From the NCBI GenBank assembly GCA_038227875.1, contig JBBRPR010000034.1:1-64000 (forward strand): DNA of 64,000 nt, given 5' to 3'. Positions within the stretch are counted from its first letter, which is position 1; every line of letters starts with the position of its first letter. The stretch comes from Planctomycetota bacterium (GTDB taxonomy: Bacteria; Planctomycetota; SZUA-567; H5-PLA8). The notes beneath the pieces were generated by a model that did not search any database, was not told the origin of the DNA, and worked only from the letters and a program-made list of their open reading frames with translations. Positions 12,606-62,495 of this stretch are shown piece after piece. Made by a program: the position numbers and the translations under genes.

Positions 12606-12609
12606 GAAA

Positions 12610-15600
12610 CTACTTGCCGACCACGTTGGCTCCGGTGGTGGTCACGTTCAGGGTCACGGTTCCGGCGTAATCGGCTCCGCCGAAGTTGATCGTGATGGGA
12701 ATCGTGGCCTTGCCGCTGCCGCCCGCGGGAACTCCGGCGGCCACCAGCACGCTGCTGAGGTTGGCGCTGATTTTCGCGGTGAACGGCGCGACCGACGTGC
12801 GCTTGCCGAACTTGAAGGAGCTCGGCGAGGCGGTGCCGGAACCCTTGGCGTTGAGCGTGAACGTCTTGCTGACGCTGCCGATCGAAATCGTCAGCGGCCC
12901 GGAGAGGCTGGTGACGGTCGCCGGCAGGGCCAGCGAGCCGCCGAGCGAGAGGACGTCCTTGCCCAGCGACGGGTTCTTGCCCTTCAGCGCGGCCTTGACG
13001 ATCGTGATCGTGCCGGGCGGAGTGGCGGCGGCGGCGACGGTCACCGTGGTGGTGCTCTTGATGGTGTTGCCCTGCGTGTCGAACATCGTCGCGGTGATCG
13101 TGTAGACCTGCGGCGTGGTGTAGGTGTGCGTCGCGCTGGCTCCGCCGGCGGCCGGAGAACCGTCGCCGAAGTCCCAACTCACCGTCAACGCCACGCCACT
13201 GGGGTCGACTCCGGCAACCGTCGCGGTGACCACTTGGCCAACCTTCGCGGGGTTGGGTGTCGCTGTCGCGGCGCTGGTGACGACCAGCTTGCCCTTCACC
13301 AGATACGTGACGGCATTGGAGACACCGCCGCCGGGCGTCGGGCTGGCGACGGTGATCGCGAAGGAACCGGCGGCCGTCAAGCTCGCGGCCGGGATGGTGG
13401 CGGTCAGTTGCGTCGCGCTGACGAAGGTGGTCGTCAGGCTGATGCCGCCGAACTGGATCTTCGACGCGCTGACGAAGTTGACGCCCGAGACGGTGATGGC
13501 AGTCGCGGCATCGCCGGCGGTGGCGGTGAGCGGCGAGACGTCGGTCAGCACCGGCGCGGGGTTGTCGATGCTGAAGTTCGCCGCGGCCGAGGTACCTCCA
13601 CCCGGCGCGGGATTGACGACGGTGATCGAGGCTGTACCGGCGGCGCTGAGGTCGCCGGCGGGGATGACGACGATCAGCAGCGTGGAGTTGATGAACGCGG
13701 TCGGGCGGCTGACGCCGTTGAAGTTGACCGTGGCCGTGGGGGCAAAGCCGGTGCCGTTGAGCATGATGTTGAGGCCTGCGGTGCCCACGAGCGTCGACGA
13801 GGGGCTGACGCTGGTGATGACGGGAACGGCGTTGGGCGCCGTGACGTCGAGGGTGGCGGCCGACGAGGTGCCGCCGCCCGGACCCGGGTTGAAGACCGTC
13901 ACCGCGTTGGCCTTGACCACGGCCAGATCGGCGGTGGTGATCGCGGCGGTGATCTGCGTCGAGGAGACAAACGTGGTGACGCGGGCCAGGCCGTTCCACT
14001 GGCAGACCGAACCGGCGACGAAGTTGGAGCCGGTGATGGTCAGCGTGAAGCCGGAAGCGCCCTGTGTCGCGGTGGTCTGGCTCAGGTTACTGATCGACGG
14101 TGCCGGGTTGAGGACGGTGAACGTCGCCGCCGAAGAGAGGCCGCCGGAGGGGAGCGGGTTGAAGACGGTGACGAGCACCGATCCGGCGCTGGCGATGCTG
14201 GCGGCGGAGATCGACGCGGTCAGTTGCGTGGAGGAGACGAACGCCGTGGTCAGGTTGGTGCCATTCCATTGAATCACGGCACCGGTGGCGAAGTTCGAGC
14301 CGTTGACGGTCAGGGTAAATCCGGCCGAACCGGCGGTGATGAACGCGGGCGTCAGGCCGGAGATGGCCGGCGTGGCGGGATTGTTGATGGTGAACGTTGC
14401 GGCCGACGACGTGCCTCCGGCGGGCGCGGGATTGGTGACGGTGACCGAAGCCGATCCGCCCGTGGCGATGTCCGCGGCCGGGATGGTGGCGACCAACTGC
14501 GTGCTGCTGGAGAAGATGGTCGTGCGCGCGGAGCCGTTCCAGTAGACGACGGAGCCGGGGACGAAGCCGGTGCCGGTGAGGGTCAGGCTGAAGCCGCTGC
14601 CGCCGGCGGTGGCGCTGGCGGGATTGAGCTGGGTGATGGCCGGCGCGGGATTGTTGACGGTGATCAGCGCCGTGGCCGTGGCGGAGTTGTAGTTGGCCGT
14701 GTCGGTCGGGGTGAAAGTTGTGGACAACGTTTGACCGACGCCGGCGTTGAGCACGGTGCCCGACGGAGGCGCGTAGGCGAACGATCCGGCCGTGGCGCTG
14801 GTGGCGTTGAGTTCGGTGCTGCTGAGCGCTGTGCCATAGGTGATAGGCGAGGGATTCGCCCACGTGATCGCCGGCGTGGCCTTGGCGATGAAGAGCACGG
14901 CGTTGGTCGAGCCGGTGTAATTTGTGTCGTTGATCGTGACGAGCACATTATAGGTGCCCGCGTTGGTTGGCGCGGTGACGGAACCGTTGTAGAGAATCGT
15001 CGCCGTCGCGGCGAGCGACGCGGGCGATGTGGTCACGGTGATGGGCTTGGGGTTGCCGTCGTAGGTGACGCTCAGACCGCTGAGCGTGAACGTGGGAGGT
15101 GCAGCTTTCTGGACGGTCAACTGCACGCTGGCTGTCGCTCCGGTGAAGTTAGTCGTGTCGGTAGGAGCAAACGTTGCGGTCAACGTCTGCACTCCGGCAT
15201 TGAGTACTGCGCCGGAGACGGGCAAGTACGTGAACGAGCCGGGGGTGCTGGCGGTGGCATTGAGCTGGGTGTTGTCCAAGGCGGTGCCGTAGACGATGGG
15301 CAGCGGCGTGGCCCAGGTGATGGTCGGTGTGGCCATAAGGACGTTGATCTTCGCGGTGGCCGTGACGGCGGCGTAGTTGGTGAGGTCTGACGGCGTGAAC
15401 GTCACGGACAAGAGCTGGCCGCTTCCGGCGTTCAGGACGGTTCCGGCCGCGGGCGTGTATGCGAACGTTCCGGCGACGCCGCCGCTGGTGGCGTTCAACT
15501 GCGTGGAGCTCAGCGCGGTGCCGTAGGTGATGTCGGCGGGGTTGTTCCATGTGATCGTCGGCGTGGTGACGAGCACGTTGATCGTCGTGGTCTTGGTGAC

Positions 15601-18600
15601 GGATGCGTAGTTGACGCTGTCTGTCGGCGTGAACGTCACGGACAAGCTCTGGGCGTTACCGACGGTCAGAACAGTTCCTGCCGCTGGCGTGTAGGCGAAC
15701 GAACCGGGCAGACCGCCGCTGGTGGCGTTCAACTGCGTGGCGCTGAGCGCGGTGCCGTAGGTGATGTCGGCGGGCGTCGGCCACGTGATGGTCGGCGTGG
15801 CCTTGTTTACATCGATCGTCACGGACTTCGTGGCGGTGGTGTAGTTGGTCGTGTCGGTCGGCGTGAACGTCGTCGTCAGCGTCTGGTTTGCGCCGGCGTT
15901 TAGCACGATGCCCGCCAGCGGGTTGTAGACGAACGAGCCTGACGCCACGCTGCTGCTGGCGTTGAGTTCCGTCGTGCTGAGCGCGGTGCCGTATGTGATC
16001 GCCGAAGGATTCGACCACGTAATAATGGGCGTGGCCTTGGCGATGTTGAGCACGGCGTTCGTTGTGCTGGCGTAGTCCAAGTCGTTGATCGTGACCAGCA
16101 CGTTGTACGTGCCAGCGGTGGTCGGGGCGGAGCTCGATCCGTTGTAGAGCACGGTGGTGTTCAGCGGCGAGGGCGTGGTCGTCACGGTGATCGGCTTGGG
16201 CGAGCCGTCGTAGATCGCATTGAGGCCGCCGAGCGTGACCACAGGCGACGCCTTGAGCACGTTCAGTTGGACGGTGGCCGTGGCGGTCGTGTAGTTGGTC
16301 GTGTCGGTCGGATCGAACGTCACCGTCAGCGTTTGCACGCCGGCGTGGAGGATCGCCCCGAAGTCTGGCGCGTACGTAAATGACCCGCCGGTGCTGGCGC
16401 CAGCGTTGAGCTGCGTTGCGGTCAGCGCGGTGCCGTAGGTAATCGAAACGGGTGTCGCCCAGGTGATGGTGGGCGTGGCCTTATTGACGTTGATCTTCGC
16501 GGTGGCCGTGACGGTGGGATAATTGGTGTCTGTCGGTGTGAACGTCACCGACAAGAGTTGACCACTCGCGGCGTTCAGGACGGTTCCGCTCGGCGGCGTG
16601 TAGACGAACGCTCCGGCGATTCCGCCGCTGGTGGCGTTCAACTGCGTGGAGCTCAGCGCGGTGCCGTAGGTGATGTCGGCGGGGTTGTTCCATGTGATCG
16701 TCGGTGTGGTGACGAGCACGTTGATTGTCGTGGTCTTCGTGACGGATGCGTAGTTGACGCTGTCTGTCGGCGTGAACGTCACCGACAAGCCCTGCGCGTT
16801 GCCGACGCCCAAGACTGTTCCGGCCGCGGGCGTGTAGACGAACGAACCGGGCAGACCGCCGCTGGTGGCGTTCAACTGCGTGGCGCTGAGCACGGTGCCG
16901 TAGTTGATGTCGGCGGGCGTCGGCCACGTGATGGTCGGCGTGGCTTTGTTGACATCGATCGTCACGGACTTCGTGGCGGTGGTGTAGTTGGTCGTGTCGG
17001 TCGGCGTGAACGTCGTCGTCAGCGTCTGGTTCGCGCCGGCGTTGAGCACGATGCCCGCCAGCGGATTGTAGACGAACGAACCAGCGGCCACGCTGCTGGT
17101 GGCGTTGAGTTCGGTTGTGCTGCTGAGGGCGGTACCGTACGTGATCGCCGCGGGATTCGACCACGTAATAATGGGCGTGGCCTTGGCAATGTTGAGCACG
17201 GCGTTGGTGGTGCTGGCGTAATCCAGATCGTTGATCGTGACCAGCACGTTGTACGTGCCGGCGGTGGTCGGCGCTGTGCTCGAGCCGTTGTAGAGCACGG
17301 TGGTCGCCAGCGGTGACGGGGTGGTCGTTACGGTAATCGGCTTGGGCGAGCCGTCGTAGATCACGTTGAGTCCGCTGAGCGTGACCACAGGCGATGCCTT
17401 GAGCACGTTCAGTTGGACGGTGGCCGTGGCGCTTGTGTAGTTGTTCGTGTCGGTCGGATTGAACGTCACCGAGAGCGTTTGCACGCCGGCGTCGAGGATC
17501 GTAGTCGCGGGTGGCAAGTAGATGTACGATCCGGCGGTGCTGGCGACGGCGTTAAGCTGCGTCGCGCTGAGCGGCGTGCCGTAGGTGATCGAAACCGGCG
17601 TCGGCCAGGAGATCGTGGGCGTGCGCTTGCTTACCGTCAACGTCGCGGGCGCGGAGGTGCCGCCCAGCGTGGTCACGGTGACGGGGACGCTTCCGGCGTT
17701 CGCCAATTCCGCGTCGGGCACGGTGACCGTGATCGACGTCGCGGAGATCGCGGACGGAACGATGGGTGTCGCCGCGCTGAACTTCACAGTTGTGCCAGCG
17801 GTGAAACCGGTGCCGGTGATCGTCAGCACCTGGCTGGTCGTTCCGGTGAACACGGTTGACGGGCTCAATGCGGAGATCGCCGGCACTGGGAGCTGCGCGG
17901 TGAACGTGGCCTTGGCCGAGGCGGTGCCGCCGTTGCCGTCGGAGATCGTGTAGTTCACGCTGTCGGTCGTGGTGAAGTTGAGATCGGGCGTGTAGAGGAT
18001 GCGGTCGTTGGTGGCGTTGAGCACCGCGCTGCCGTGGGCGGGCTGCGTGATCGCGGTGATGGTCAGTGTTTCGCCGGATTCCGTCGTGTCGTTGGCCAGC
18101 ACATCGGCGATGAAGGGTGCGCTGCCGAACGGCGTGGTGAAGGAATCGTTGACGGCGACCGGAGGCGCGTTGACCGTCAGCACGACGGTGTTGGAGGCGA
18201 CGCTGTTGGTGAGCAGTGAGACGGTCTTGGTTCCGGCGGTGGCCGCGACGGTGGCGGGCACGACGGCGTAGACTTCCGTCGTGCTGACATATGTGGTGGA
18301 GACGGCCGTGCCGTTGATTAGCACGGAGGTGCCGGCGGTCATCTGCGCCGACGTGTCCGTGATGTCCAGCAGGAACGATCCGGAATTCTGCTGAACGTGC
18401 GCCGGGTTGATGCTGGTGATGTTCGGCGTGCCCGTAGGATTGATGGTGAAACTGGCGCTCAACTGCGGCGTCAGTCCTGACGAAACCGCGCGCAGGTTGT
18501 AGGTACCGGCTTTGTTCACGCCCAAGTCGTTGAAGCGGATCACGCCGTTGGTCGCGAAGATCGTCGTGGTGCCGATCAGGGACGCGAAGTTGGTGTTGTT

Positions 18601-21600
18601 GAAGAGGAGCACTGTCACCGGCCCGTTGAAGCTCAGCGCGAGATTACCCTGCAGGTCGAGCGCCTGGATCACCGGCTGAGGCGCGAGCAGTTGATTGACC
18701 AGGCCGTCTCCCGGCGGCGTGACAAAGGTCAACTGCGTGGCCAGGCCGTAGAGGGGCGAGGGGAACGGCTGGAATCCGATCTGAGCGGGGAACTGGTCGG
18801 CACCGTTGCCGAGCCATTCGCTGTAGGTCTTGCCGAGACCGGTGACGTTCGAGCCCAGACCGGCGAGGTTGTTCACCGAATCGTACGGGCCGGAGGAATC
18901 GCCCCAGAAGTTGAGCGTGGCGTCGAGCACGCTGGTGGAGGTGTTGAGCAGACCGTCCTGACTGAAGGACTGGATCGAGTTGGAATTGACCTTCACTGTT
19001 GAGGACGTCGCGCCTTGAACGCTGACGCCCGCGCCGGAGTTCTGCAGCAGCTTGTTGTTCTTGATGGTGGTTGTGTTGTTGCCGCCGAGCAGCGTCACGG
19101 CCGCCACCGAGCAGCTCTGAATTTCGTTGCTGTCGATCGTCGCGCCGGTGACGTTTGGATCGAGCGAAATGCCGGAGGTACTGCCGCTTGCCGCGCCGGC
19201 GTTGAGCAGATTCGCGCGCACCGTGGCGGAGTTGCTGGAGACCTGGACGGCAATGCCGCCGCTGAAGCCGTTGATGATGTTATTGGACAGCGTCGCCGAC
19301 GTATCCGCGAACTGCACGGAGACACCGACGGCCTTGCGGATGGTGAAGCCGTCGATGCTGGATCCCGTTCCGCTCGTGGCGACGAAGACCAGCGGCGATC
19401 CCTGGCCCGAGCCGTCGATGATCGACTCCCCCGCCCCGCTTGAGCGGCTCAGCGGATCGATGGTGTACTTCGCGCCGCGCAGGTCCACGGTCTTGTTCAG
19501 GGTGACGGTTTCGTTGTAGGCCGTGGTATTGGGCCAGACCTGAACGATGAAACCGGAGCCCGTGAGCAGGCCGGTGGCTTCGTCGATGAAATTGCCAGCG
19601 GTCTGCGGGCTGCCGTTCCAGACGTTCAGGAAGGTGAAGTCGCCCTGGAATCCCGCGACGCCGGTGTTTCCGTCAGCGCCGCTGTTGAGCCAGGGCGTGT
19701 AGTCGACGGCCGCGGAGACGGTGGCCGTCACGGCGGTTTGCGTGGTGAAGCCGAACCAGTTGCCCGAGGCATCGACGGTGGTCGCCGCCACGGTGGCGTT
19801 GTTGACGGCCTTGCCGCCGTTGCCGGAGAGTTTGTTGTTGAAAATCTTCGCGGTGACGAAGCCGTCGGAGTTCACCTTGGCGATCTTGATGCCGTCGCTG
19901 GCGTTGCCGGTGATGAAATTCTGTTCAGCACCATCGAGCGTACCACCGTCCACCGCCAGGACGCCGACGCCAAGCGTCGTGATGGTGTTCTGGAACAGTC
20001 CGGGCGCGCCGGTGGCGACGCCTTTGTTGGTCAAACGCACGCCGACGGTCAGGTTTCCGGTGATCGAATTCTGACCGGCGAACGCGGCGGCACCGTCGAT
20101 GTCGAGGCCGATGCCCGTTCCGGTGATGCTGTTGTTCGAAATCTGCGCGTTGGCGCTGGGTGCGTTGATTCCCTTCTGGTTCGTGTCGCGGACGCGGATG
20201 CCCGAGGTTACGGCCGATGTAATCGTGTTGCCTGTTCCGGAGCCGCCAACGGTGGCGGTCAAGCCGCCGCCGGGAGTTCCCAACTGCAGGATGTCGATGC
20301 CGCGGTCGAATCCGGTGATGGAGTTCGTGCCGATCACCGCGTCGCCGGCGGTCGTCGTACCGGGTCCGTTGTAGAGCAGAATGTCGGAGAGCGCGATGTC
20401 GACTGCGCGGCCGGTCGCGGCGCCGGCGGTGGCGTTCGTGGCGGTCAGGCTGTTGTTGGTGACGAAAACCAGACCCGTGCCGTTGCCATACAGGAAGATT
20501 CCGGAGTTGCCTTTCTGGCAGCTGATCGTGTTCGCATCCACGGTCACCGCTCCACCGCTGCTGAGCACGCCGATGCCGACATCCTTGCCGGTGCCGGCGG
20601 TTCCGAGGCTGACGGTGTTGCTCGACACGCTGACGGTACCTTGGCTGGAGTCGACGAGGATCGCGTAGAGGTCGTCGGTGTTGCCGGTGAGCGTGACCAA
20701 GTTGCCGAGCGTCGGAGCGCCGACGACGCTGCCCTTGGCGAGGTGCGCCAGCTTCAGGCCGCTGCCCGTGCCGCTGACGGTGTTGCTGTTGAACGTGCTG
20801 GGCAGCGTGGTGAGCGTTGCGTCCACATCAATTCCTGCCACGCTGGTTCCGGTGATGCTGTTGCCTATCACGGTGGAGTCGACGTGGGTGAGTTTCAGGC
20901 CCGTCGGCGTGGCGGAGATTGTGTTGCCGGTGACCGCCAGGCCGCTGCTGAGCACGGTGGTACTGAAGTCGACGGCGGAGGTGCCGATGTTCTTCAGCGT
21001 GTTCTGATTGATCGTCACGCCGTCCAATGCCGCCGCGCCGGGGGCAGAAATGGCGAAGTCGTAGGTCTTGCCCGCTGCGCCGCCGGAGCCATCGACGGTA
21101 AGATTCTGAATCGTCACCGCACCGCTGGAGAGCACGAACGCGCTTCCCGCTGCGGCGACGGGAACGACCTGGACGTTGCCGTTGCCCGGAGTCTGTCCAT
21201 CCAGGCTGACGGAGCGATCGACGGCGATGTTGGATTCGTCGTAGAAGCCGGTGCGGATGTCGATCGGACTGGGCGTCGCGCCGCCCGCGGCCGCGGCGAT
21301 GGCTTTGGCGAGACGGTCGAAGATGGCCTGGCCGTTGTTGCCAGCCAGTTGGGCAGTGGTGCCGTAGCCGACGAGCGCTCCGCGGTCGAACGTGTTGGCG
21401 GCGTAGAGCGCGCGAAGATTCGCAACCGAGCGCTGGAGATCCCAGAACTGGGCACCGAATCCGCTCACAGGCGGAGCGTTCTTGAAATTGTTGCCCGAAA
21501 TCGTTCCGGCCGATGCCGCGTCCAACTTGACGCGCGCCGTTACGCTGGCGGAGTTGGAGAAATCGTTGGTGGTGATCGCGCTGCCGTCGGCCTGCTGCAG

Positions 21601-24600
21601 CAGACCAATCGCGTTGGCTCCCGTAAAGGTATTGCCGGTGACGGCGGTAGGCGTTGCAGAGGTGCCGATGTTGACCAATTCGGTAGCGGTCTTGCCGGTC
21701 GCCACCTTAAAGGTGTTCGACGCCAAGGTATGCCCACTGGACAGCGCGAGCAGCGCATTGCTGGTATCGGCCGCCGAAATGATGTTGCCGGTCACCGAGC
21801 AGACACCGGCTGTCGAATCGAGGTAGACGGCGGCCTGTCCGGCACCGTTGATCGTGAATCCCGTCGACGCGCCCGTACCGATGGCGACTTTGCCGGCGGT
21901 GACTTTGATCGCGCCGCTGGTGGCCGTAGTGCCCACGCCGGCGATCGTGACGCTGCCTGAGGCGTGTGTGGAGACCAAGGTCAGATCCTTGGCGATGGTG
22001 ACGTCTTCCGTGTAGGCGGTGGCTCCGTCTTCGACCTGGACCTTTCCGCCGGCCGTTGCCAGGTTGACACCTTCCTGGATGAACGTCACCGAGCCGGCAT
22101 TGGCGCTGTGGTTGTCGACGTGGAGCCACGTAAAGTCTCCGTTGAAGCCGGGCGTGGCAAGCGCCAGCGGCGTGCCGGTGTGCAGCCACGGGCTGTAATC
22201 GGCCAAGCCGCTGATGGCTCCGGTGACGCTAACGGGCGTAAATCCGCCCCACCAGTTGCCGGACGCATCGACGGCGGTCTGCGGTGAGGTCAGATTCTTG
22301 ACCGCAAAGGACGTGTTGACGCTGAGATCGTTATTGAAAATCGTGCCCAGACCGTTGGCGGCACTTTCGAACTGAACGCCCACGGCGTTGAGCGTGATGA
22401 AGTTGTTCTGGATGGTGTTGATCGTGCCGGTGGATTCATCCACGCCGATCGTATTGCTCTGGATGGTGTTCTGGAGCAGCGTCAGCACGCCGCTGTTGTT
22501 GACGAGTGCTCCGGTGGCCAACGTTTTGAGCTGATTGTTGGTCAGCGTCGCGGAACCGCCGTTGCCGGTCTGTGTTACGCCGAGGTAATCGGTGAAACTC
22601 GGGGCGAATTGCACGCCGATTCCGGCGACCGACGCGGAGACCGAGTTCAACGTCGCGTTGAACTGTGTCGCCGACGTGCCCTTTGCCACCGCAAGACCGG
22701 TGTCGAGACCCGTCAAGATGTTGCCATTGGCCGTCAGCGTCGCCGGGAAATCGCCTCCGGGCGGCACGATGGACGAGGCCAGCAGACCCACTCCGCCTGT
22801 GGCAAACGGACTGATCGTGTTGCTCGACACCGTCGCGCTGCCACCGAATACCGCAATGCCGTAAGAGGTGGACTTGACGGTATTGGACGTCACTTGCGAC
22901 GTGGTCGTGGCGGGCTGTTCGATCACCGCGCCGTACGTGTTGTTGCTCAGTGTATTGAACGAGATCACATCGCCGGCGGTCGATGCGGACGCGCGGGAGA
23001 GCGCGCCGACGATGCAGCCGGAGATTGTGTTGCCTGCGCCGGTTCCACCGACGACGACCGTGGCACCCGCGGGAGACGACGCGACGAGCACGCCGATCGC
23101 CGCGCTGGAGACGGTGTTCTTCGTGATCGTGGCCGTACCGTTGGAGATCGAGATGCCCGCCGCGCCGCTGGCCACGGCGCCGCCGATTGTCTTGATCGTA
23201 CAGTTGTTTACCGTCGTTGCGCCATTCGCGGAGGAATTCTTGACGCCGCTATTCTTGAGATTTTGAATCGTGAGGCTGTCAACCACGATAGCCGTCAGAT
23301 TGGCCGCGCCGTTGGTGTTGATGCCGTTGAGGGCCGTCGTCAGACCGTCGACAGTCAGGTTCTGAATGCTGATCGTGTCGTGGGTCAGCGTGAAGACGTC
23401 GCCCGCCGCCGCTTTGACCGTCGTGTTGGCCGCGCCGTTACCGAGGATCGTCAGCGCCTTGGGCACCGTCACATTTTCCGTGTAGGTTCCGTTCAGGACG
23501 TGGACGGTGTCGGTGGCAGACGCCGCGGTGACGCTTGATTGAATGTCACTGCGAACGATGACGAATCCGCTTTCATCGTTGACCAGCGCATCGCCCCCTC
23601 CATTGCCGGTGCCGTACACCGCGCGGTCCAGCGTGTTGAGGGGCAGCAATGCCTTCAGATTTGTGGCATCGAGAGCGGCGATGGTATCCCCGGAAATGAC
23701 CAGCGCGCTGACGGTGTCGATCAGGTTGAGCTGCCGCAGATTGTTGACGAATGTGTTGCCGGTCAGGGTGGTGATGTCCAAACTGCCGCCATACGTGGGC
23801 TGAATGATCACGGCGTCCGCACAACCTGAGAAGGTGTTGCCCTGAACCAGTGTGTTGTTCGTGGCCACGTTCAAGCCGCTGGTCGCTCCGAGGATCACAT
23901 TCTGCTGAATTCCCGCTCCGCCGCCGAATGCGCCGACGATTCCGGAACTCGAGTGGACAATGAGATTGTCCGAAACCGACGCGATCGCGTTGCCGCCGGA
24001 CGTCTGCGCGGACGCGGTGGCGGTGCCGTTGGCGGTGGTGCTGTTGCCGGTGAACGCATTTTCGGTGGCGACGTAGGTAAACGTGGCGGCGTTTGGAACA
24101 TTGATGCCGTACGTGTTGGCGTCCGTCGACGCGCTGTAGTCGAGCACGGAGTTTTGAACCGTCAGCGATGTAACCGCGGCGGTGTTGGTGATGCCCTGGT
24201 TGAACCCGCCGGAACCGGACGCGGGCAGTACGATGCGGACACCGTCGATCACGACCGTCGGCGACGTGACATTGACGACAGCACCGAATCCCGTGGCACC
24301 GGCGATAATCGTCTCATTCGCGACCGGGCGAACCGTCGACGCCGTGGTCGGAGCCGGGCCGGCGGGATTGACGTAGCCGGGAACGCCAGCCTGCTCGCCT
24401 TTCAGCGTCATTGCCTTATTAAGGGTGATGTTTTCCGAATATGTCGCCTTTGCGACGTAGCAGGTGTAGGTCGGCTGGCACGCGGTGATGCCGCTGGCGA
24501 TCGTGGTGAATGCGTCGACGCCAATGATGTGCGGCGAACCGGGAACGGGGTCGTTGGCAAACGTGACGCTCGTGCCGTTGGCCAGCGCATTGTAATTGGT

Positions 24601-27600
24601 TTTGTCGACAAACGTGTTCGTCACCGGGAGGATCGTCAGCAGCAGGTTGTTGGCGTCGGAGGTGTAATCGAGCTTGTAGGTGAAGCCGACGTCGTTGATC
24701 ACCGTGACGTTTTTGAATACGCCACTGACCGAATTGTACGTCGCGATGCTGACCGGACCGCCGGCGGCGATGAGTCCGTTGAAGTCCAGCACCAGCGTCG
24801 ACGTTCCACCGAGAGTCAGCGTGTGGCCGGTCAAATCGAGCTGACCGAAGTCCGTGCCCGCGGTCGCGCTCGTAACTTTCTTCACGCGCAGCGTCAGCAC
24901 GCCGCCGACGCTCACGTTGGTGTCGCCACCGGCGAGAACGCCCAGTTCCGATGCGCCGACGCCCGGAGTAATCCTGCCACCGGTTTGCGTCGTGATTGAG
25001 CCGGTAATCGGTCCGGTGCCGCTCAGCAGACCGCTGCCGCCGATGGTCACGTTGGACGACAGGGAGCCGTCGACTTCGAGCGTACCTGCACTGATCGTGG
25101 TAGTACCGGAATAGGTGTCGGTGCCGGAATAGATCAACGTACCCGCGCCGATTTTCGTGACGTTGCCTGTCGTACCGGAGAGCGAGCCGACGATGGCCGA
25201 AGCGGACGCGACATTCAACTGGACGTCGCGCGTCAGCGTGGCCGCGCCGAAGGAGCGGGCGCCGCTGGCGAGCGAAACCACGGCGTTGGTCGACGCGACC
25301 AGCAAACCGTCGGAGAGCTTGGCCACGGCCGCGCCGGTTTGATTTAAATCGACCGCCGGGGCAGTGACGCCCGCCGATCCAGTCAGGTCTGATCCGATGT
25401 CGAGAATAAACTTATCCGTTGTTGCCGTCGTCAGGTCGCCGGCGCCGGTGAAGAACAGCGCTTTGCTGATCGTCACCGTTTCGTGATAACCCGATCCGCC
25501 TGCGCCATTGACGATGACATTGCCTGCCGGCGCAACCGCGGCGACACCCTGTGTAATGGTGGCGAAACTGTCGTATAGGAAACGGGCGGTTGCCGGCGGC
25601 GGAACTCCCGGCGCGGTGGACGTGGTCGGCGCTGCGCCCGCTGTGGTTCCGGCGAATAGCGGATCCACGTACACGGGCGACGGCGGGGGCACCGTCACCT
25701 GGAGCGATACATTTCCCGAGCCCACGGGATAGCTGACGAGACCGGTCGTACCGGCGATGCCGTTGATGAATGAGAGTCCGCCCGTGAACGTGCCAGACTT
25801 GGTCGCGGCGACCAGGATCGCGGCCGTGCCGCTCTGGTACATGTTGGTCGCGTTGACAGCCAGCGCGGAGTCCAGCGTCAAGCTGCCGGTCAGCGACAAC
25901 TGGTCGAAATCCGTGCCGGCAACCGAGAAATTCTTGATCTTCACGAGCAGCTTCGCGCCGCTTTGGAGCGTCACGTTGCCGCCGTGGAGAATGCCGTAGC
26001 TCGTCGGCGTTCCCGGAGCCAGCGTGCCACCACTCGTGACAAGAATGTCGCGATTAATTGTGCCGTCGCCGCCCAACGTGGCGTTCGAATTGACCGACAC
26101 AGCGCCACCACCGATCGTAAGCGACCCGGGCGAATTGATCAACAGGGTACCGGCGCTGACGTTCGTCGCGCCCAAATAAGTGTCCGTTCCCGAAAGGGTC
26201 AGCGTGCCCGGCCCCGCTTTCACCAGGACGATCGACGGACTGGCGTTACTGATCGAACCACTAATCACGGGCGACTGACCAGCGTTCACACTGAACGTCA
26301 CCTGCTTGTACAACGCGAACCCAGCGGCATCATAAGGCCCGGTTCCCGTGTTGATCAGAATGGTGCCGAGCGGCGCCACACAATTCAGCGCCGTATTTAC
26401 GTCTGAGAACGTTGTTCCCACACTGGGGACACTGCTGTCAACGGTCACGCTGTTGGGCTGGGTCACGTGGACGACAATCTTGTCCGTGAACGACGTGGTA
26501 TCGACCGCGACGTTGTAGCGGAAGTTATTGTTGAGGATATGGATGTTGGCCGGAGCGAACACGCCGGAGAGATTTCCGGTGGGATATTTAATGATGTTTG
26601 CATCGCCGGGCGTGTCTTTCGGGAGCGCGTTGAGGTCGATGTTCAGGATGGAAGTGGTGTCGAGCTTAACCATGCCACCGCCGGTAACAATTACTTGATC
26701 GTAATCCGTGCCAGCGGTCGTGAATCCCTGAATTTCAACATCCAACTGCCCGTTGTTGGTCAGGTCGTAGTCTCCATTGAAGGTTTGTGTGGAGGGACTG
26801 TTTCCCGGTGAATTCGCCCCGTTGCCGAACGCGTGGAATCCGCCGTTGATCAAGCCAAATCCGCCAACAACGCTTCCCGCTCCGGAAACCGTTACACCCG
26901 ATGCCGAGGCGAACGCTGTGGCGCTATTGACCTTGAGCGTACCACCAGTCACATTGACCACACCTGTGTAGCCGCCAGTACCGATGAATTCGATCGCGCC
27001 TGGACCGGCAATTCCCACGGGACCCGTGCCCGTGAAGGGGCCGGTGAATGTGACGACGTCCGTGGCAACAGGGACGGCGAAGGTAAAGGCCATGGACGCG
27101 TTTACGCCGCCATACGTTCCACCCGACATGGAAATTGTTCCACCGGGTGTCAGCGCCACAATAGCCGCTGAGAATGTAGGGAAGGCGTCGTATCCGATCC
27201 AATGTGGATTGGGATCGCCCGGCAGGTAAACGAGTGTGCCGGTTGTAAATCCCGCCCACGCGCTGCTGATCGCCAGACTGCTGGAACTGACCGCAAAACT
27301 CTTGACCGTCGCCTGTCCTACTCCATTGTTGGAATCGGTAACAGCAATGACGACAGTGAAATTGCCGCGGGATGCGTAGGTGTGCGATACCTGGTTCGCA
27401 CCAGAGGTGACTGCAATGTTTGAATCGACATTGCCGTCGCCCCAATTGACGGAGGCCGTATACGTTTCCACCGCACTGCCGGGGTCGGAGAATGAAAAGT
27501 TCAGGATCGTCGGCGATCCGATTGCCGCCTGGAAGTCCGATGCGACAACCGTCGGCGGGTTATTTGGAACATTAATGGTAATTGTTGCGGGCGGCGAATC

Positions 27601-30600
27601 GGCAATACCGTCATTCGCGACGAAGACGAAACTGTCCGCCTCAAACGCGACATGTGCCGGTGTGTAGGTCAGGGCAGGTGCAGTCCCGCTAAGGGAGCCC
27701 CTGGCTGGCGACTGAATCACGCGATATGAGAGTTGGCGCGGACCGTTGTCCGCATCTGTTGCCGTCAGAGTTACCGGGAGTGGCTGCGCCGCAGCTCCTT
27801 CGGAATACGTAAACGTCTGACTATCGGCAACAGGAACGGTATTGGGGACAAGTGTTAGTCCAAAAGGTTGCACCAGGAAGTTCTGCGAGGATAGAACGGT
27901 CTGCGCCTGCGTTGCGGGATTGATTCTGACGATCGATGCACTTCCAGCGCTGGCGGTGACAATCTTGCCCGCGGAATCAACGGCGATCGACGTGGGTCCC
28001 ACGATCGATCCGTCAACTCCGACTCGTGTTTGATTGCCCGCGGAATCCAGTTTCAAGACGAGGTTGGGCAAGGTGGGCTGATTGCCAAATAACTGCGCAA
28101 CGTCGGAAATATATACGTTGCCACTGGTATCCAAGGCAATCCCGAGCGGTAGCGTGATGTCTCCGCCACTGGCAAAGGTGGCAGGATTTCCGCCGCTGGG
28201 TATCTTCACGACAACGCTTGGTTCTCCCTGTCCAAAGAAGAAAAGCCCATTGTTGATATAGATGTCGCCGTTGGCGGCTTCCGCGACGCCTGTCGCCAGA
28301 ACATGTCCACCGGGAAGCACATTGCCAGCCGGTGTTCCATTCGCATTGTATCGGTTCACGCCTGCGGTGCCATCGGCCACGAGGAACGATCCGCTTGCTT
28401 CGGCAAACATCCCCAAGGGCATGCTGAGTCCTGTGGTAACAAGGGGAGTTTGCTGACCTGTCGCCGGATCAACGCGAATAATCGAAGGGACGTTGTTATT
28501 TTGGGTGGATACCAAAAGGGTGCCGCTGGCTTCAAACGTGATGGATTGAGCATTGGACAGACCCGTCGCAATCTTGAACTGATTTCCCGTAACTGGATCG
28601 ATCAGAATTACCGCCGCGGCTTGCGAATCGGCCACAAAAATATCGCCTGGCGTTACTTTCGGGACTATCGTGACGGTAAATGTCCCCGGTGTGGCTGCGG
28701 CACCCAGTGCGTCCACCACATTAAACATGAAAGAATCCGTGCCGAATTCGTATGGGGAAGGCGTGTAAGTAAAGGTTCCATTCGCATTCACATTTGCACT
28801 GCCACGCGAACCATTGGTCTTGAGTGAAAAAGTTAGCTGCTGAGCCGGAAGGTCGGGATCGGTTGCCGCAAGCGTTCCATTGAGAGCAACACCTTGCGTG
28901 GTGCTGCCAGAGCCATTGATCGCGGTAGGAGGCTGGTTCTGGACGTTCAGGGTGAACACTCCGTCCGCCGTGGCGAATCCGTCCGTCACATGAAATACAA
29001 ACGAGTCCTGTTGCGGCGTGCCGGGCGCAACGTACGTGAACTGCCCCTGCGCATTCGTGGATACCGAGCCGGCTTGTGGCTGATCGACCGTGTACGTGAG
29101 AGTCTGGCCGCCAGGCTGCTGGAAGACCTTATCTGGATCGGTTGCAGAGAGCGTACCATTGTACGTTGCGCCGAGCCCGACGTTCGCATTTCCGTTGTTC
29201 GCAACCGGAGGCCGATTGACGAACGTGATGGTTATTGGAACTGTAAACGTTGTAAATCCATTATCACCGGCCACGAATCCCTGAGAGTTCTTGATGCTGA
29301 TTTGAAAATCGTCCACCAACTCGCCGCTGACATCCGTCACGTCGTCGGTTGCATAGGAAATAATCTGATCGTCGATATCCTGCTGGGTGAAGGTGTCGCC
29401 GGGTGCGAGTGCGGTCGTGTTCTTGCGCAGTTTTCCATTACGCGCGCCATTAATGAACGTATAGGTAATCTGGGCATCGGCACCCCCGGAGGAATCCGTC
29501 GTCAGCAGTGCGGTGTTGCTGAAATTCACGCTGGAGCGCTGATTCAGCGACACCCCCGTGTTGATGGCCAATTTCACAGTCCGATTGATGGCGAATTTGA
29601 ACGTGAAGGTAGTGCCTGTGACGGTACCCGTGCTCGCCATCGCTCCATACGGGTCGGAGACGCTGAATTTAAACCCATCGCTCTGCTGGCCGGTATTGTC
29701 GGTTTCCGTATAGGAAATAATACCGCCATCAATATCGTCCTGCGTGAACGTGCCGCCGACGGATACCGCCGCGTTATTCTTCTTCAATACGCCGTATTGG
29801 GGCAGTCCTCCAGAAAGAATTGTATAAACAATATTTGTGGAGGTGAATCGAGTATCCGTCGCTTGCAGGTTTGATGATGGGACGACGACAGTCGCGGTCT
29901 GATTAACCGGCAAAGTGACGTTGGTCGCCACTTGCAAATACAGATTGATATTAATTGGAAAGGTGAACGTAGTGTGCCCTTGATCGATTGCAAACCCACC
30001 GCCTGGATCGGTCACTCCGAATTGGAATCCGTCGTGTGTCTGTCCGGATGTATCGGTTTCCGTGTATGTGATCCTATTGTTGTTAATATCGTCTTGCGTG
30101 AAGGTGCTGCCGGCAATAAGCGGGGCGCCGCTATTCTTGAGAGATCCGTACGCCACGGATCCACCACCAGTACCAGTAGGAATCGTATAAATAATCTGCG
30201 TTGGCGGATAAAGTGAATCCGACGCGCTCAGAAGTGTATTCGTAATCGTAACAGTCTGCGTCTGATCGACAGTCACACCTCTATTTTCTTGAAGTTTGAG
30301 CGCAGGCGTAACAACCACTGGAATTGAAAATGAACTCGTGGCACCATCGGCATCGAGAACCGATACGGTTACGGTTGTGCTTGCACTTTGATTCAGCGCT
30401 GGCGTCATCGTCAGCGTGTAGTTTCCAGATCCAAGGTTGGTCAAGCTGAGACTGCCATTGGGAAACAGGGTTGTATCGACAGCGCTGACGGAAGTCACAA
30501 GGCTGCCTGTGGCCGTTTCATTGTCGCTCACCGAAAACGGCAGTGCTGTCGACGATTGGTTTCCCGGAATTACGACCGTCTGAGTATTGTCGAAGCCTGG

Positions 30601-31287
30601 CGTCAGCGTTGGCGCAGTATTTACGTAGTACAGACCACCGGTTACATCCGACGTAGTTGCTCCAAGGTTATTGTTATTGGCATAGTCATACGTCCCAATA
30701 CCAAAGGACGTAAATCGCATATTTACTTTGTAACTAAATGTTGTTCCGTCGATGATGCGGACAGCTCCGCCCACACTCGCTTGCAGCCCTACAGTCGTTG
30801 GGTCAATTAGCTTGACTGGATTGTTGTTTTGATCCGTGATGGTAGCCGTGAAGGTAACGGGAACTGTTGGGGAACCGACGATAGTTGCTGTAAATACCAG
30901 AACTCCGCCATTCAAAGATGAACTGCCTGGCACAAAAACAAGTGTCTGATTGTTTCCGAAAATACCCAGTTGAATTGAATTAGGTACAAAAGCCCAGTAG
31001 ACCTGCCCACCGTCTTTGTCCGCCAGCTTAACATTTGAAAACGTCCAATTCTGGCCGCCCTTAGCAATCGCGCCACCCGACTGCCCATTAATGACCGGAG
31101 CCGAAACAAACGTCACGCCTCCAGGCGGTTGAACTGGGAAGATGAAAGGCCCTGTCGCAGTCAAACCCCACGCTGCGTTTGGAATGCAAGCAAGCAAAAG
31201 GAGCGCGGCCAGCAGCGCGTTTGTCGCACGACTGTTTCGAATCAAATTAGACGCACCTCGTTGCTCGGAAATCTTCAAGGACTTCAT
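12610..31287 (-). CDS. Giant (~6,225 aa) secreted adhesin. Order: 3 CSPG/cadherin-like, Ig-like (Big_9 type), NHL-like propeller, PKD, autotransporter-associated beta-strand repeats, parallel beta-helices, IPT/TIG, MBG-like repeats, IPT/TIG, PKD, unknown C-terminal domain
   Basis: Uninterrupted 18.7-kb ORF; signal peptide LLAALLLLACIPNAAWG. Motifs: FTQ.DI....I.Y x3, K.G.GTL..SG..TY.G.T..S.GTL, DASGNW.G..DY.PWL, KATP.ITW..P..ITYGT.LS.TQLNA repeats, P.I..L.P...AG...FTLT..G..F repeats, WDFGDG. Confidence 0.93.
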   Translation of the reverse strand: MKSLKISEQRGASNLIRNSRATNALLAALLLLACIPNAAWGLTATGPFIFPVQPPGGVTFVSAPVINGQSGGAIAKGGQNWTFSNVKLADKDGGQVYWAFVPNSIQLGIFGNNQTLVFVPGSSSLNGGVLVFTATIVGSPTVPVTFTATITDQNNNPVKLIDPTTVGLQASVGGAVRIIDGTTFSYKVNMRFTSFGIGTYDYANNNNLGATTSDVTGGLYYVNTAPTLTPGFDNTQTVVIPGNQSSTALPFSVSDNETATGSLVTSVSAVDTTLFPNGSLSLTNLGSGNYTLTMTPALNQSASTTVTVSVLDADGATSSFSIPVVVTPALKLQENRGVTVDQTQTVTITNTLLSASDSLYPPTQIIYTIPTGTGGGSVAYGSLKNSGAPLIAGSTFTQDDINNNRITYTETDTSGQTHDGFQFGVTDPGGGFAIDQGHTTFTFPININLYLQVATNVTLPVNQTATVVVPSSNLQATDTRFTSTNIVYTILSGGLPQYGVLKKNNAAVSVGGTFTQDDIDGGIISYTETDNTGQQSDGFKFSVSDPYGAMASTGTVTGTTFTFKFAINRTVKLAINTGVSLNQRSSVNFSNTALLTTDSSGGADAQITYTFINGARNGKLRKNTTALAPGDTFTQQDIDDQIISYATDDVTDVSGELVDDFQISIKNSQGFVAGDNGFTTFTVPITITFVNRPPVANNGNANVGLGATYNGTLSATDPDKVFQQPGGQTLTYTVDQPQAGSVSTNAQGQFTYVAPGTPQQDSFVFHVTDGFATADGVFTLNVQNQPPTAINGSGSTTQGVALNGTLAATDPDLPAQQLTFSLKTNGSRGSANVNANGTFTYTPSPYEFGTDSFMFNVVDALGAAATPGTFTVTIVPKVTPGDIFVADSQAAAVILIDPVTGNQFKIATGLSNAQSITFEASGTLLVSTQNNNVPSIIRVDPATGQQTPLVTTGLSMPLGMFAEASGSFLVADGTAGVNRYNANGTPAGNVLPGGHVLATGVAEAANGDIYINNGLFFFGQGEPSVVVKIPSGGNPATFASGGDITLPLGIALDTSGNVYISDVAQLFGNQPTLPNLVLKLDSAGNQTRVGVDGSIVGPTSIAVDSAGKIVTASAGSASIVRINPATQAQTVLSSQNFLVQPFGLTLVPNTVPVADSQTFTYSEGAAAQPLPVTLTATDADNGPRQLSYRVIQSPARGSLSGTAPALTYTPAHVAFEADSFVFVANDGIADSPPATITINVPNNPPTVVASDFQAAIGSPTILNFSFSDPGSAVETYTASVNWGDGNVDSNIAVTSGANQVSHTYASRGNFTVVIAVTDSNNGVGQATVKSFAVSSSSLAISSAWAGFTTGTLVYLPGDPNPHWIGYDAFPTFSAAIVALTPGGTISMSGGTYGGVNASMAFTFAVPVATDVVTFTGPFTGTGPVGIAGPGAIEFIGTGGYTGVVNVTGGTLKVNSATAFASASGVTVSGAGSVVGGFGLINGGFHAFGNGANSPGNSPSTQTFNGDYDLTNNGQLDVEIQGFTTAGTDYDQVIVTGGGMVKLDTTSILNIDLNALPKDTPGDANIIKYPTGNLSGVFAPANIHILNNNFRYNVAVDTTSFTDKIVVHVTQPNSVTVDSSVPSVGTTFSDVNTALNCVAPLGTILINTGTGPYDAAGFALYKQVTFSVNAGQSPVISGSISNASPSIVLVKAGPGTLTLSGTDTYLGATNVSAGTLLINSPGSLTIGGGAVSVNSNATLGGDGTINRDILVTSGGTLAPGTPTSYGILHGGNVTLQSGAKLLVKIKNFSVAGTDFDQLSLTGSLTLDSALAVNATNMYQSGTAAILVAATKSGTFTGGLSFINGIAGTTGLVSYPVGSGNVSLQVTVPPPSPVYVDPLFAGTTAGAAPTTSTAPGVPPPATARFLYDSFATITQGVAAVAPAGNVIVNGAGGSGYHETVTISKALFFTGAGDLTTATTDKFILDIGSDLTGSAGVTAPAVDLNQTGAAVAKLSDGLLVASTNAVVSLASGARSFGAATLTRDVQLNVASASAIVGSLSGTTGNVTKIGAGTLIYSGTDTYSGTTTISAGTLEVDGSLSSNVTIGGSGLLSGTGPITGSITTQTGGRITPGVGASELGVLAGGDTNVSVGGVLTLRVKKVTSATAGTDFGQLDLTGHTLTLGGTSTLVLDFNGLIAAGGPVSIATYNSVSGVFKNVTVINDVGFTYKLDYTSDANNLLLTILPVTNTFVDKTNYNALANGTSVTFANDPVPGSPHIIGVDAFTTIASGITACQPTYTCYVAKATYSENITLNKAMTLKGEQAGVPGYVNPAGPAPTTASTVRPVANETIIAGATGFGAVVNVTSPTVVIDGVRIVLPASGSGGFNQGITNTAAVTSLTVQNSVLDYSASTDANTYGINVPNAATFTYVATENAFTGNSTTANGTATASAQTSGGNAIASVSDNLIVHSSSGIVGAFGGGAGIQQNVILGATSGLNVATNNTLVQGNTFSGCADAVIIQPTYGGSLDITTLTGNTFVNNLRQLNLIDTVSALVISGDTIAALDATNLKALLPLNTLDRAVYGTGNGGGDALVNDESGFVIVRSDIQSSVTAASATDTVHVLNGTYTENVTVPKALTILGNGAANTTVKAAAGDVFTLTHDTISIQNLTVDGLTTALNGINTNGAANLTAIVVDSLTIQNLKNSGVKNSSANGATTVNNCTIKTIGGAVASGAAGISISNGTATITKNTVSSAAIGVLVASSPAGATVVVGGTGAGNTISGCIVGALSRASASTAGDVISFNTLSNNTYGAVIEQPATTTSQVTSNTVKSTSYGIAVFGGSATVSSNTISPFATGGVGLLASSIVPPGGDFPATLTANGNILTGLDTGLAVAKGTSATQFNATLNSVSASVAGIGVQFAPSFTDYLGVTQTGNGGSATLTNNQLKTLATGALVNNSGVLTLLQNTIQSNTIGVDESTGTINTIQNNFITLNAVGVQFESAANGLGTIFNNDLSVNTSFAVKNLTSPQTAVDASGNWWGGFTPVSVTGAISGLADYSPWLHTGTPLALATPGFNGDFTWLHVDNHSANAGSVTFIQEGVNLATAGGKVQVEDGATAYTEDVTIAKDLTLVSTHASGSVTIAGVGTTATSGAIKVTAGKVAIGTGASTGFTINGAGQAAVYLDSTAGVCSVTGNIISAADTSNALLALSSGHTLASNTFKVATGKTATELVNIGTSATPTAVTGNTFTGANAIGLLQQADGSAITTNDFSNSASVTARVKLDAASAGTISGNNFKNAPPVSGFGAQFWDLQRSVANLRALYAANTFDRGALVGYGTTAQLAGNNGQAIFDRLAKAIAAAAGGATPSPIDIRTGFYDESNIAVDRSVSLDGQTPGNGNVQVVPVAAAGSAFVLSSGAVTIQNLTVDGSGGAAGKTYDFAISAPGAAALDGVTINQNTLKNIGTSAVDFSTTVLSSGLAVTGNTISATPTGLKLTHVDSTVIGNSITGTSVAGIDVDATLTTLPSTFNSNTVSGTGSGLKLAHLAKGSVVGAPTLGNLVTLTGNTDDLYAILVDSSQGTVSVSSNTVSLGTAGTGKDVGIGVLSSGGAVTVDANTISCQKGNSGIFLYGNGTGLVFVTNNSLTATNATAGAATGRAVDIALSDILLYNGPGTTTAGDAVIGTNSITGFDRGIDILQLGTPGGGLTATVGGSGTGNTITSAVTSGIRVRDTNQKGINAPSANAQISNNSITGTGIGLDIDGAAAFAGQNSITGNLTVGVRLTNKGVATGAPGLFQNTITTLGVGVLAVDGGTLDGAEQNFITGNASDGIKIAKVNSDGFVTAKIFNNKLSGNGGKAVNNATVAATTVDASGNWFGFTTQTAVTATVSAAVDYTPWLNSGADGNTGVAGFQGDFTFLNVWNGSPQTAGNFIDEATGLLTGSGFIVQVWPNTTAYNETVTLNKTVDLRGAKYTIDPLSRSSGAGESIIDGSGQGSPLVFVATSGTGSSIDGFTIRKAVGVSVQFADTSATLSNNIINGFSGGIAVQVSSNSATVRANLLNAGAASGSTSGISLDPNVTGATIDSNEIQSCSVAAVTLLGGNNTTTIKNNKLLQNSGAGVSVQGATSSTVKVNSNSIQSFSQDGLLNTSTSVLDATLNFWGDSSGPYDSVNNLAGLGSNVTGLGKTYSEWLGNGADQFPAQIGFQPFPSPLYGLATQLTFVTPPGDGLVNQLLAPQPVIQALDLQGNLALSFNGPVTVLLFNNTNFASLIGTTTIFATNGVIRFNDLGVNKAGTYNLRAVSSGLTPQLSASFTINPTGTPNITSINPAHVQQNSGSFLLDITDTSAQMTAGTSVLINGTAVSTTYVSTTEVYAVVPATVAATAGTKTVSLLTNSVASNTVVLTVNAPPVAVNDSFTTPFGSAPFIADVLANDTTESGETLTITAITQPAHGSAVLNATNDRILYTPDLNFTTTDSVNYTISDGNGGTASAKATFTAQLPVPAISALSPSTVFTGTTSQVLTITGTGFTAGTTVKFSAATPIVPSAISATSITVTVPDAELANAGSVPVTVTTLGGTSAPATLTVSKRTPTISWPTPVSITYGTPLSATQLNAVASTAGSYIYLPPATTILDAGVQTLSVTFNPTDTNNYTSATATVQLNVLKASPVVTLSGLNVIYDGSPKPITVTTTPSPLATTVLYNGSSTAPTTAGTYNVLVTINDLDYASTTNAVLNIAKATPIITWSNPAAITYGTALSSTTELNATSSVAAGSFVYNPLAGIVLNAGANQTLTTTFTPTDTTNYTTATKSVTIDVNKATPTITWPTPADINYGTVLSATQLNATSGGLPGSFVYTPAAGTVLGVGNAQGLSVTFTPTDSVNYASVTKTTTINVLVTTPTITWNNPADITYGTALSSTQLNATSGGIAGAFVYTPPSGTVLNAASGQLLSVTFTPTDTNYPTVTATAKINVNKATPTITWATPVSITYGTALTATQLNAGASTGGSFTYAPDFGAILHAGVQTLTVTFDPTDTTNYTTATATVQLNVLKASPVVTLGGLNAIYDGSPKPITVTTTPSPLNTTVLYNGSSSAPTTAGTYNVLVTINDLDYASTTNAVLNIAKATPIITWSNPSAITYGTALSTTELNASSSVASGSFVYNPLAGIVLNAGANQTLTTTFTPTDTTNYTTATKSVTIDVNKATPTITWPTPADITYGTALSATQLNATSGGLPGSFAYTPAAGTVLTVGNAQSLSVTFTPTDSVNYASVTKTTTINVLVTTPTITWNNPADITYGTALSSTQLNATSGGVAGTFAYTPAAGTVLNAGSGQLLSVTFTPSDLTNYAAVTATAKINVLMATPTITWATPLPIVYGTALDNTQLNATASTPGSFTYLPVSGAVLNAGVQTLTATFAPTDTTNFTGATASVQLTVQKAAPPTFTLSGLSVTYDGNPKPITVTTSPASLAATATILYNGSVTAPTNAGTYNVLVTINDTNYTGSTNAVLFIAKATPAITWANPSPITYGTALSSTELNATSATAGSFAYAPPSGTVLNAGVGQTLSTTFTPTDTANYNSATATALITVNNPAPAITQLNPASATAGGSGFSLTLTGTGFVPGSVVYWNGSARTTIFSSSTQLVATIPAADIATGGSASVTVTNPAPAGGTSSAATFTINNPATPAISGLTPAFITAGSAGFTLTVNGSNFATGAVIQWNGTNLTTAFVSSTQLTASISAASIASAGSVLVTVFNPLPSGGLSSAATFTVLNPAPSISNLSQTTATQGASGFTLTITGSNFVAGSVCQWNGLARVTTFVSSTQITAAITTADLAVVKANAVTVFNPGPGGGTSSAATLDVTAPNAVPVITSVSPSSTLVGTAGLNIMLNGTGFAPTATVNFNGVSRPTAFINSTLLIVVIPAGDLSAAGTASITVVNPAPGGGTSAAANFSIDNPAPVLTDVSPLTATAGDAATAITVSGVNFVSASKIQFGGISLTTTFVSATQLTATIPAASLTAAGSFAITVASPTPGGGVSNAVTYLVKGKLVVTSAATATPNPAKVGQVVTATVAGVDPSGVALTVSWDFGDGSPAAGGASATHTYTTPQVYTITATMFDTQGNTIKSTTTVTVAAAATPPGTITIVKAALKGKNPSLGKDVLSLGGSLALPATVTSLSGPLTISIGSVSKTFTLNAKGSGTASPSSFKFGKRTSVAPFTAKISANLSSVLVAAGVPAGGSGKATIPITINFGGADYAGTVTLNVTTTGANVVGK
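15337..17628. repeat. Intragenic tandem duplication of 2 x 1146 bp (382 aa; five Ig-like modules per unit), plus a diverged partial third unit (~14660-15336)
   Basis: Unit starts at codons 17628 (KRTP), 16482 (KATP) and 15336 (MATP), each 1146 bp apart. Long near-identical DNA, e.g. from 15481 versus from 16624. Confidence 0.9.
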
Positions 31288-38948: not shown

Positions 38949-39154
38949 GATCAATCTCTTTCCGCGAAATCGCGTTTTGCGCTCAACTCATTTCGAAACG
39001 TTGGACTGAGCGCAAGTTCCGCGCCGCTAATTATTTAGTTCCGCTCGCAGGTGGAAGTCATGGCGGATGGCGAAAGTCATCCAATCATCCCGATATTCGC
39101 AACACCGCCGAAAACGCCATAACTCGTGCACGCGTGCAATTTCGTGCTCCCAAA

Positions 39155-61127: not shown

Positions 61128-62495
<1,368 letters not shown>

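Follow-up and report, generated by a model that had tools for sequence, protein, structure and literature searches.

The window analyzed here, a 64,000-nucleotide stretch of a Planctomycetota genome (bases 1-64000 of contig C34), encodes two secreted proteins, a giant of 6231 residues and a second protein of 1300, that end in copies of the same domain. These two C-terminal domains (CTDs) belong to a large, so far unnamed family of very basic domains of ~145 residues that occupy the C-terminus of Sec-exported, acidic multi-domain proteins, and a cassette, usually of PKD domain, flexible Gly/Thr-rich or TSP3 linker and CTD, is grafted onto unrelated cargo in part of the Planctomycetota. We favor, with confidence that stands near the midpoint of the scale, a role for the CTD as a localization tag that would retain proteins non-covalently on the anionic cell envelope and might in addition be recognized by an export or attachment factor. 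The assembly of the genome under study (9.34 Mb in 176 contigs, 59.6% G+C) is 88% complete, which bounds every negative result reported for it below.

The C-terminal domain in the window and across the genome

The two proteins and the domains at their C-terminal ends map to the window as follows:

12610..31305 (-): giant secreted protein, 6231 aa from the first TTG (open reading frame (ORF) and domain scans)
13036..13266 (-): PKD domain of the giant, immediately N-terminal to its CTD (PF18911/PF00801, residues 782-858 of P0005, E 3e-11)
12613..13017 (-): CTD of the giant, 135 aa, ending ...NVVGK-stop (hidden Markov model (HMM) match, stop-to-stop residues 6098-6232, 94.5 bits, E 1.8e-26; isoelectric point (pI) 10.5)
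39230..43132 (+): 1300-aa secreted protein with a signal peptide, a PATR-repeat β-helix region, two PKD domains, one TSP3 repeat and the CTD
42071..42286 (+): PKD domain of the 1300-aa protein, the better-scoring of two stretches (PF18911, residues 950-1019, E 1.5e-35 over both stretches)
42581..42646 (+): bacterial TSP3 repeat of the calcium-binding type, the linker ahead of the CTD in the 1300-aa protein (PF18884, residues 1118-1139, E 8.9e-8)
42704..43129 (+): CTD of the 1300-aa protein, about 142-147 aa, ending ...KKGKTGSAK-stop (HMM match, stop-to-stop residues 1159-1305, 148.4 bits; pI 10.5)

The first 5000 residues of the giant comprise cadherin-like, Big_9, β-helix and PATR domains, and its last 999 hold MBG, five TIG repeats and a single PKD domain in Pfam, the TIG repeats corresponding to the "choice-of-anchor Z repeating domain" of NCBIfam. 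The initial annotation, made from the sequence of the window alone, had described both proteins as carrying autotransporter-associated repeats, Sec-type signals and basic tails that align, behind PKD domains, and this description withstood closer analysis almost throughout. PATR repeats are present in both (five stretches in the 1300-aa protein and two in the giant, by Pfam), as are signal-peptide-like N-termini, called in the giant by a crude rule; the peptides originally quoted read exactly at 12610-13011 (-) and 42695-43132 (+), with lysine as the last residue of both proteins; and a PKD domain lies directly upstream of each tail in Pfam, opened in both cases by the motif TSAA.A.P.PA. Both tails are basic, with the pI values listed above. 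The length first given for the 1300-aa protein is correct, and that of the giant changes from 6,225 to 6231 residues when counted from the first TTG.

Homology of the two tails is likewise borne out: they are 32% identical over 88 aa (BLASTP E 2e-7), and their Smith-Waterman score of 109 compares with 43.2 ± 7.6 for shuffled controls (z 8.6), none of 2000 shuffles reaching it. Each fits the family profile over its full length (HMM positions 2/3 to 145/147 of 148), and the two fall in different subfamilies on a tree of 100 CTDs.

An HMM of both tails, run on all 53,153 stop-to-stop ORFs of at least 80 aa in the genome (E<1e-3), retrieved 63 CTD ORFs with the two-sequence profile and 112 after one iteration, ranging from fragments up to 6232 aa (median 1011) and together amounting to 3.95% of genome bases. 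The match ends within 14 residues of the stop codon in 105 of the 112 and within five in 79; the seven non-terminal matches are divergent, four of them constituting the P0156 family discussed below and three being partial matches ~190-210 aa from the end. A Sec-type N-terminus was assigned to 100 of the 112 ORFs by a crude rule (a start codon, then a charged and then a hydrophobic stretch; a few calls are doubtful), and three others lie at contig edges. These numerous matches, 105 of 112 at the extreme C-terminus of signal-peptide proteins with very diverse cargo, agree with what had been anticipated for a sorting domain: the CTD is not an internal domain, the pairwise alignment is significant, and no match to a characterized ligand-binding family was found.

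The cargo was sampled with Pfam on every third (33) of the 99 ORFs whose start resembles a signal peptide and whose 5′ end is not at a contig edge, plus five internal-match proteins. Among the 33 are enzymes (GH44, peptidase C10 with an I69 propeptide, and peptidase S8), a wide range of repeat architectures (NHL and Kelch propellers, β-helix/NosD, BNR, DUF7948/SBBP, He_PIG, Ig, Big and Flg_new_2 arrays), and four proteins with no Pfam family at all. PKD is the final recognized domain ahead of the tail in 25 of the 33, and a PKD signature occurs within 260 aa upstream in 70 of the 112. Charge sets the CTD off from the protein that it terminates: over the 112 CTDs the median pI is 10.2 versus 4.7 for the preceding 400 aa, with 107 above 8.5, and 63 of the CTDs close with Lys and 13 with Arg. 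The linkers that precede the domain vary, being made of TSP3 and a (S/D)TPFGGxPAG-like motif (21 of 112, counted within 60 aa upstream of the CTD), a (GT)n or Gly-rich run, an RKTL-type motif, or the PKD domain itself. On the tree of 100 CTDs these linker types co-sort with the terminal motifs ...AKxGKSGSAK, ...GKFKK and ...IAGRSG, and thus linker and CTD have spread as one cassette.

One group of CTD proteins of ~925 aa (C20:19618-22428, L081, with its relatives P0160, P0163 and P0167) matches nothing in Pfam but the middle domain of hydrazine-synthase alpha (PF18582). The class relatives G025, G027 and G021 gave no match to HZS_alpha, which speaks against this being the anammox class; the genome under study carries no 16S rRNA gene.

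Fold and distribution of the family

The CTD of the 1300-aa protein was modeled by AlphaFold2 with a predicted local distance difference test score (pLDDT) of 97.2 as an all-β sandwich of about 11 strands that has a single short helix and lacks any hydrophobic segment. Fold searches with this model returned only generic sandwiches (Ig-like or LEA-2-like; PDB 1xo8, 8b7d), and it is these sandwich neighbors, rather than barrels, that distinguish it from the β-domain of autotransporters (type V secretion system, PF03797), a family not found in the genome under study with a control positive in 3 of 14 genomes. The early observation that the two window proteins lack a barrel or several known kinds of sorting tail also holds more widely: neither carries a type IX secretion system (T9SS) tail, the corresponding TIGR04183 model gives a single weak internal match across the whole genome (25.9 bits), and a regular expression for PEP-CTERM-like ends returned only two spurious ORFs.

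No family accounts for the domain by sequence. Among 62 aligned CTDs, no Pfam family is matched by more than one and no NCBIfam family by more than two, all such matches being weak; Big_1 and Big_10 each match one of the 62, below the cut-off where a cut-off is shown. The CTD is not a PKD/Ig domain by HMM, as PKD models match the upstream domain and never the CTD itself. No PDB sequence matched a CTD profile at an E value below 0.17, and the ESM Atlas yielded only "hypothetical protein" clusters, commonest in Planctomycetota. Public records name CTD proteins by their cargo alone, and no account of the domain appears in those parts of the literature that our searches returned. The domain may still be distantly related to one of the known sandwich families.

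A search of 1.84 billion representative proteins for the CTD gave 2899 clusters at E≤1e-3 and 2290 at E≤1e-10; in 148 of the best 150 matches the domain lies no more than 15 aa from the C-terminus, and three of the 150 have two copies. Seventeen of 41 relatives (the genome under study included) possess it: it occurs in 14 of 16 genomes of one family (f1) and in both genomes of another (f3) of the same order, in none of 21 from other families of the class, and not in the sole representative of a further family (f2; G017, an unpublished genome, 77% complete). Copy numbers per relative run from 10-21 up to at least 95, and three f1 genomes have 0, 0 and 1. In an even sample of Planctomycetota the CTD is present in 29 of 301 genomes (E≤1e-5), including several unrelated families with 1-10 copies; the family thus reaches across the phylum in patches and has expanded massively (44 to at least 95 copies) in one subgroup. 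In five distant genomes, 25 of 28 unique matches are terminal and most have a pI of 9-11.5, the remaining three being truncated alignments or cut by a contig edge. Some genomes with the CTD (G103, G006 and G014) are assembled in 4-8 contigs and may stem from cultures. Of the lineage-specific export or anchoring tag envisaged in the initial annotation, the domain and its diverse cargo thus stand and its confinement to one lineage does not, given the low-copy occurrences in several other Planctomycetota families; its function as a tag is putative.

Proposed localization and export, and alternative roles

As a localization tag, the CTD would act at the end of a two-step export route: the signal peptide would carry the protein over the inner membrane, the outer membrane would be crossed next by a path for which a GspD-type type II secretion system (T2SS) is one lead, and the cationic CTD would then hold the acidic cargo non-covalently on the anionic cell envelope, with the linker serving as a tether. 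As a free C-terminus is apparently required, the CTD may also be the target of an export or attachment factor. GW modules and SLH domains, which are cationic or bind polymers, tether unrelated exoproteins to an anionic polymer of the envelope; they do so as tandem repeats on Gram-positive walls, whereas the planctomycete CTD is single-copy and its host diderm, and the likeness would be one of role, not of sequence or fold.

Homologues of the cargo show what else can stand in the C-terminal position. The catalytic C10 cassette from one of the CTD proteins recurs at 45-50% identity in many phyla, where it is joined to other C-terminal modules (MAM, dockerin, Flg_new_2, SdrD_B, GEVED). In one CTD-less genome of the same class, G021, a single homologue with 49% identity closes with a run of Gly, then a Cys, a hydrophobic helix and a tail rich in Arg:

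G021:C68, locus L154:7-3318: C10 peptidase with Kelch-like repeats, whose C-terminal end consists of GGGGGGGGGGGC, a hydrophobic helix and a tail rich in Arg

Taken with the giant's choice-of-anchor repeats, this tail fits a CTD that would take the place of an anchor or sorting signal. A GH44 cargo could not serve for the same comparison, five CTD-less relatives having no homologue of it. Small sorting signals at the C-terminus, with their processing enzymes, namely LPXTG/sortase, PEP-CTERM/exosortase, GlyGly-CTERM/rhombosortase and MYXO-CTERM/myxosortase (listed in bioRxiv 10.1101/2023.06.07.544157), fill the same position on exported proteins, and the tail of the G021 homologue has such a layout. 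The CTD differs from them in being a folded domain of 145 aa, with neither the motif-helix-basic-tail arrangement nor a hydrophobic helix, and no processing enzyme for it was found.

A more specific proposal, which we put forward tentatively, is that the CTD would be the address label of a planctomycetal surface-display pathway, read by an outer-membrane export or attachment apparatus and serving upwards of 100 proteins in each cell (some 4% of the genome); it would then be an analogue, of independent origin, of the T9SS C-terminal domain. The apparatus could be a GspD-type T2SS whose distribution parallels that of the CTD. Nine secretins are present in the genome under study, one of them within a complete operon:

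C60:33189-44675 (L152): T2SS operon GspE-GspF-pseudopilin(J,K)-GspD

Among the relatives, orthologues of this C60 secretin, with 57-64% identity, are found only in G001, G003, G008, G009, G011, G013, G015 and G016, and these eight are exactly the relatives with at least 44 CTD copies. A 568-aa protein composed of six TIG domains is encoded ahead of the operon.

Several observations weigh against a localization tag. The co-distribution of the T2SS is a lead and not proof: the eight genera may belong to one clade, and the operon is missing from genomes that have 10-21 CTD copies. When the ORFs within 6 kb of the 112 CTD genes were clustered, regulators were the main families to emerge and no secretion genes were found; searches of the genome as a whole likewise retrieved no dedicated partner or machine for the CTD. 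The machinery, suggested in the initial annotation to be encoded elsewhere, did not surface in the genome searches. A simple anchor, moreover, need not sit at the very C-terminus, and a strongly basic sandwich might bind anionic material outside the cell just as well; the count of signal peptides comes from a crude rule, some of whose calls are doubtful; and the tail of the G021 peptidase is a single case that matched no NCBIfam CTERM model.

The regulators near CTD genes are mainly of two kinds, extracytoplasmic function (ECF) sigma-type (28 ORFs, 29 neighborhoods) and AraC (18 neighborhoods). Long ECF-type ORFs lie near CTD genes in 17 of 50 cases versus 7.8 expected, a modest enrichment by a test that ignores clustering. 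The ECF sigma factors beside CTD genes, with regions 2 and 4, have open frames of up to 1014 aa (e.g., C67:31345-34386 and C5:4091-6766).

The T9SS C-terminal domain of Bacteroidota (Por_Secre_tail, TIGR04183/PF18962) serves, according to PMC5121618, as a recognition signal that is taken off by PorU. It shares with the planctomycete CTD a folded β-sandwich at the extreme C-terminus of Sec-exported, diverse cargo, often after an Ig/PKD-type domain, and tens to more than 100 cargos per genome. The logic is the same, but in sequence, size and phylum the planctomycete domain falls outside the T9SS family: none of 62 planctomycete CTDs matches the T9SS model in Pfam or NCBIfam, and TIGR04183 spans ~72 positions against ~145 aa and ~11 strands in the CTD.

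We consider it rather unlikely that the CTD is a T9SS-like cleaved export signal, recognized in the periplasm by an outer-membrane translocon (dedicated, or the GspD-type T2SS) and then removed or exchanged for an anchor, with no later role. Such a signal would suit the strictly terminal, single-copy position (105 of 112 in the genome; 148 of the best 150 in the library, with three in tandem), the conserved extreme C-terminal motifs (...GKxGxAK, ...GKFKK, ...GRSG), the more than 100 diverse cargos per genome, the existence of proteins of up to 6231 aa that show no other means of passing the outer membrane, and the T2SS operon that accompanies CTD expansion. However, recognition alone leaves the uniform, extreme positive charge and the tether-like linkers unexplained, there is no cleavage motif common to all linker types, and low-copy CTDs persist in genomes devoid of that T2SS orthologue. 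No T9SS tail model matches, and the SprA_N family (PF14349) was not found in the genome under study, the control genomes being equally silent.

Lower still in probability we place a substrate- or surface-binding module, akin to a carbohydrate-binding module or an adhesin, that would bind external anionic material such as acidic polysaccharides, DNA, clay or humic surfaces, and not the producing cell. The pI of about 10 in 107 of 112 CTDs and the β-sandwich fold, which many binding modules have, are compatible with this, as are the cargos that are hydrolases (GH44, C10, S8) or adhesin-like repeats, and ECF sigma and AraC regulators often adjoin CTD genes as they do inducible exoenzyme genes. 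It is retention on the producer's own envelope that we prefer.

The last alternative concerns docking. Dockerins, the ~70-aa calcium-binding helical repeats of the cellulosome, place one terminal module on many unrelated enzymes; the CTD, in contrast, is all-β, and no cohesin-like scaffold was found. A candidate receptor is the membrane-anchored P0156 family, a relative of the fold with four genes in the genome under study:

C124:5940-9245 (L103): P0156-family gene
C51:7485-10841 (L111): P0156-family gene
C20:110099-113404 (L110): P0156-family gene
C28:41170-43755 (L112): P0156-family gene

These proteins of ~1100 aa consist of an N-terminal hydrophobic anchor, a repeat-like region of ~600 aa with no assignment, a PKD domain and two tandem CTD-like sandwiches, the latter predicted as the fold of the C-terminal 330 aa, and they end in ...RKxAxAKxWKLR. 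In three of the four paralogues the first sandwich is acidic (pI 4.7-5.6). Full-length orthologues are found in all 16 relatives with at least 10 CTD copies, in addition to the genome under study, and in none of the 24 with 0 or 1 copy. P0156 as a universal CTD partner is weakened in that its N-terminal part was not found with this query in four of five distant CTD-bearing genomes. The neighborhoods of the four genes hold regulators, no machinery and nothing related, and complex predictions for the CTD alignment with the C-terminal 330 aa of P0156 gave 0.53, 0.00 and 0.00 in separate runs, which argues neither for nor against binding. A dockerin-like system, in which CTDs would plug proteins onto a scaffold or receptor with complementary domains, is accordingly the most doubtful of the accounts weighed here: the identical terminal module on dozens of unrelated enzymes recalls cellulosome-type assembly, and P0156 tracks CTD copy number among the relatives and has the acidic, tandem sandwiches described, but its patchy occurrence in distant genomes and its uninformative neighborhoods speak against it, and no protein with many repeated receptor domains was found.

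The CTD gives a concrete object for studying how very large planctomycete proteins reach the surface with no autotransporter-type barrel. It further provides a computational handle on the surface proteome of uncultured soil and sediment Planctomycetota and is a candidate fusion tag for surface display. Described as a new DUF-type family, it would improve the annotation of thousands of proteins (2899 public clusters, and more than 100 proteins per genome).

Neighboring genes and a second copy of the giant's 3′ end

The region between the two CTD genes of the window encodes a 1721-aa protein with Ser/Thr kinase, AAA_16, GAF and GGDEF domains (31663-36828 (+)), whose family recurs as ten ORFs in 11 CTD-gene neighborhoods, and a 697-aa protein (36861-38954 (-)) that combines an ice-binding-like domain (PF11999, E 1.7e-58) with two Big_5 domains and lacks a CTD. 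Directly 3′ of the gene for the 1300-aa protein lie two PQQ_2/BamB-like β-propellers, of 717 aa (43915-46068 (+)) and 1810 aa (46580-52012 (+)), the former of a type that recurs as six ORFs in six CTD neighborhoods. Further downstream, at 58067-63913 (-), is a gene string of BatA/VWA, FHA-MoxR (AAA_3) and DUF4159, an aerotolerance-type operon.

A second copy of the 3′ end of the giant gene is found on another contig of the same genome, where C100:15145-16709 is 87% identical over 1565 bases to 12609-14172 of the window. The open frame of this copy is only 187 aa, which marks it as a truncated paralogue or a broken gene. The two contigs, C100 and C34, are also identical in their first 139 bases, which suggests a repeat at contig ends.

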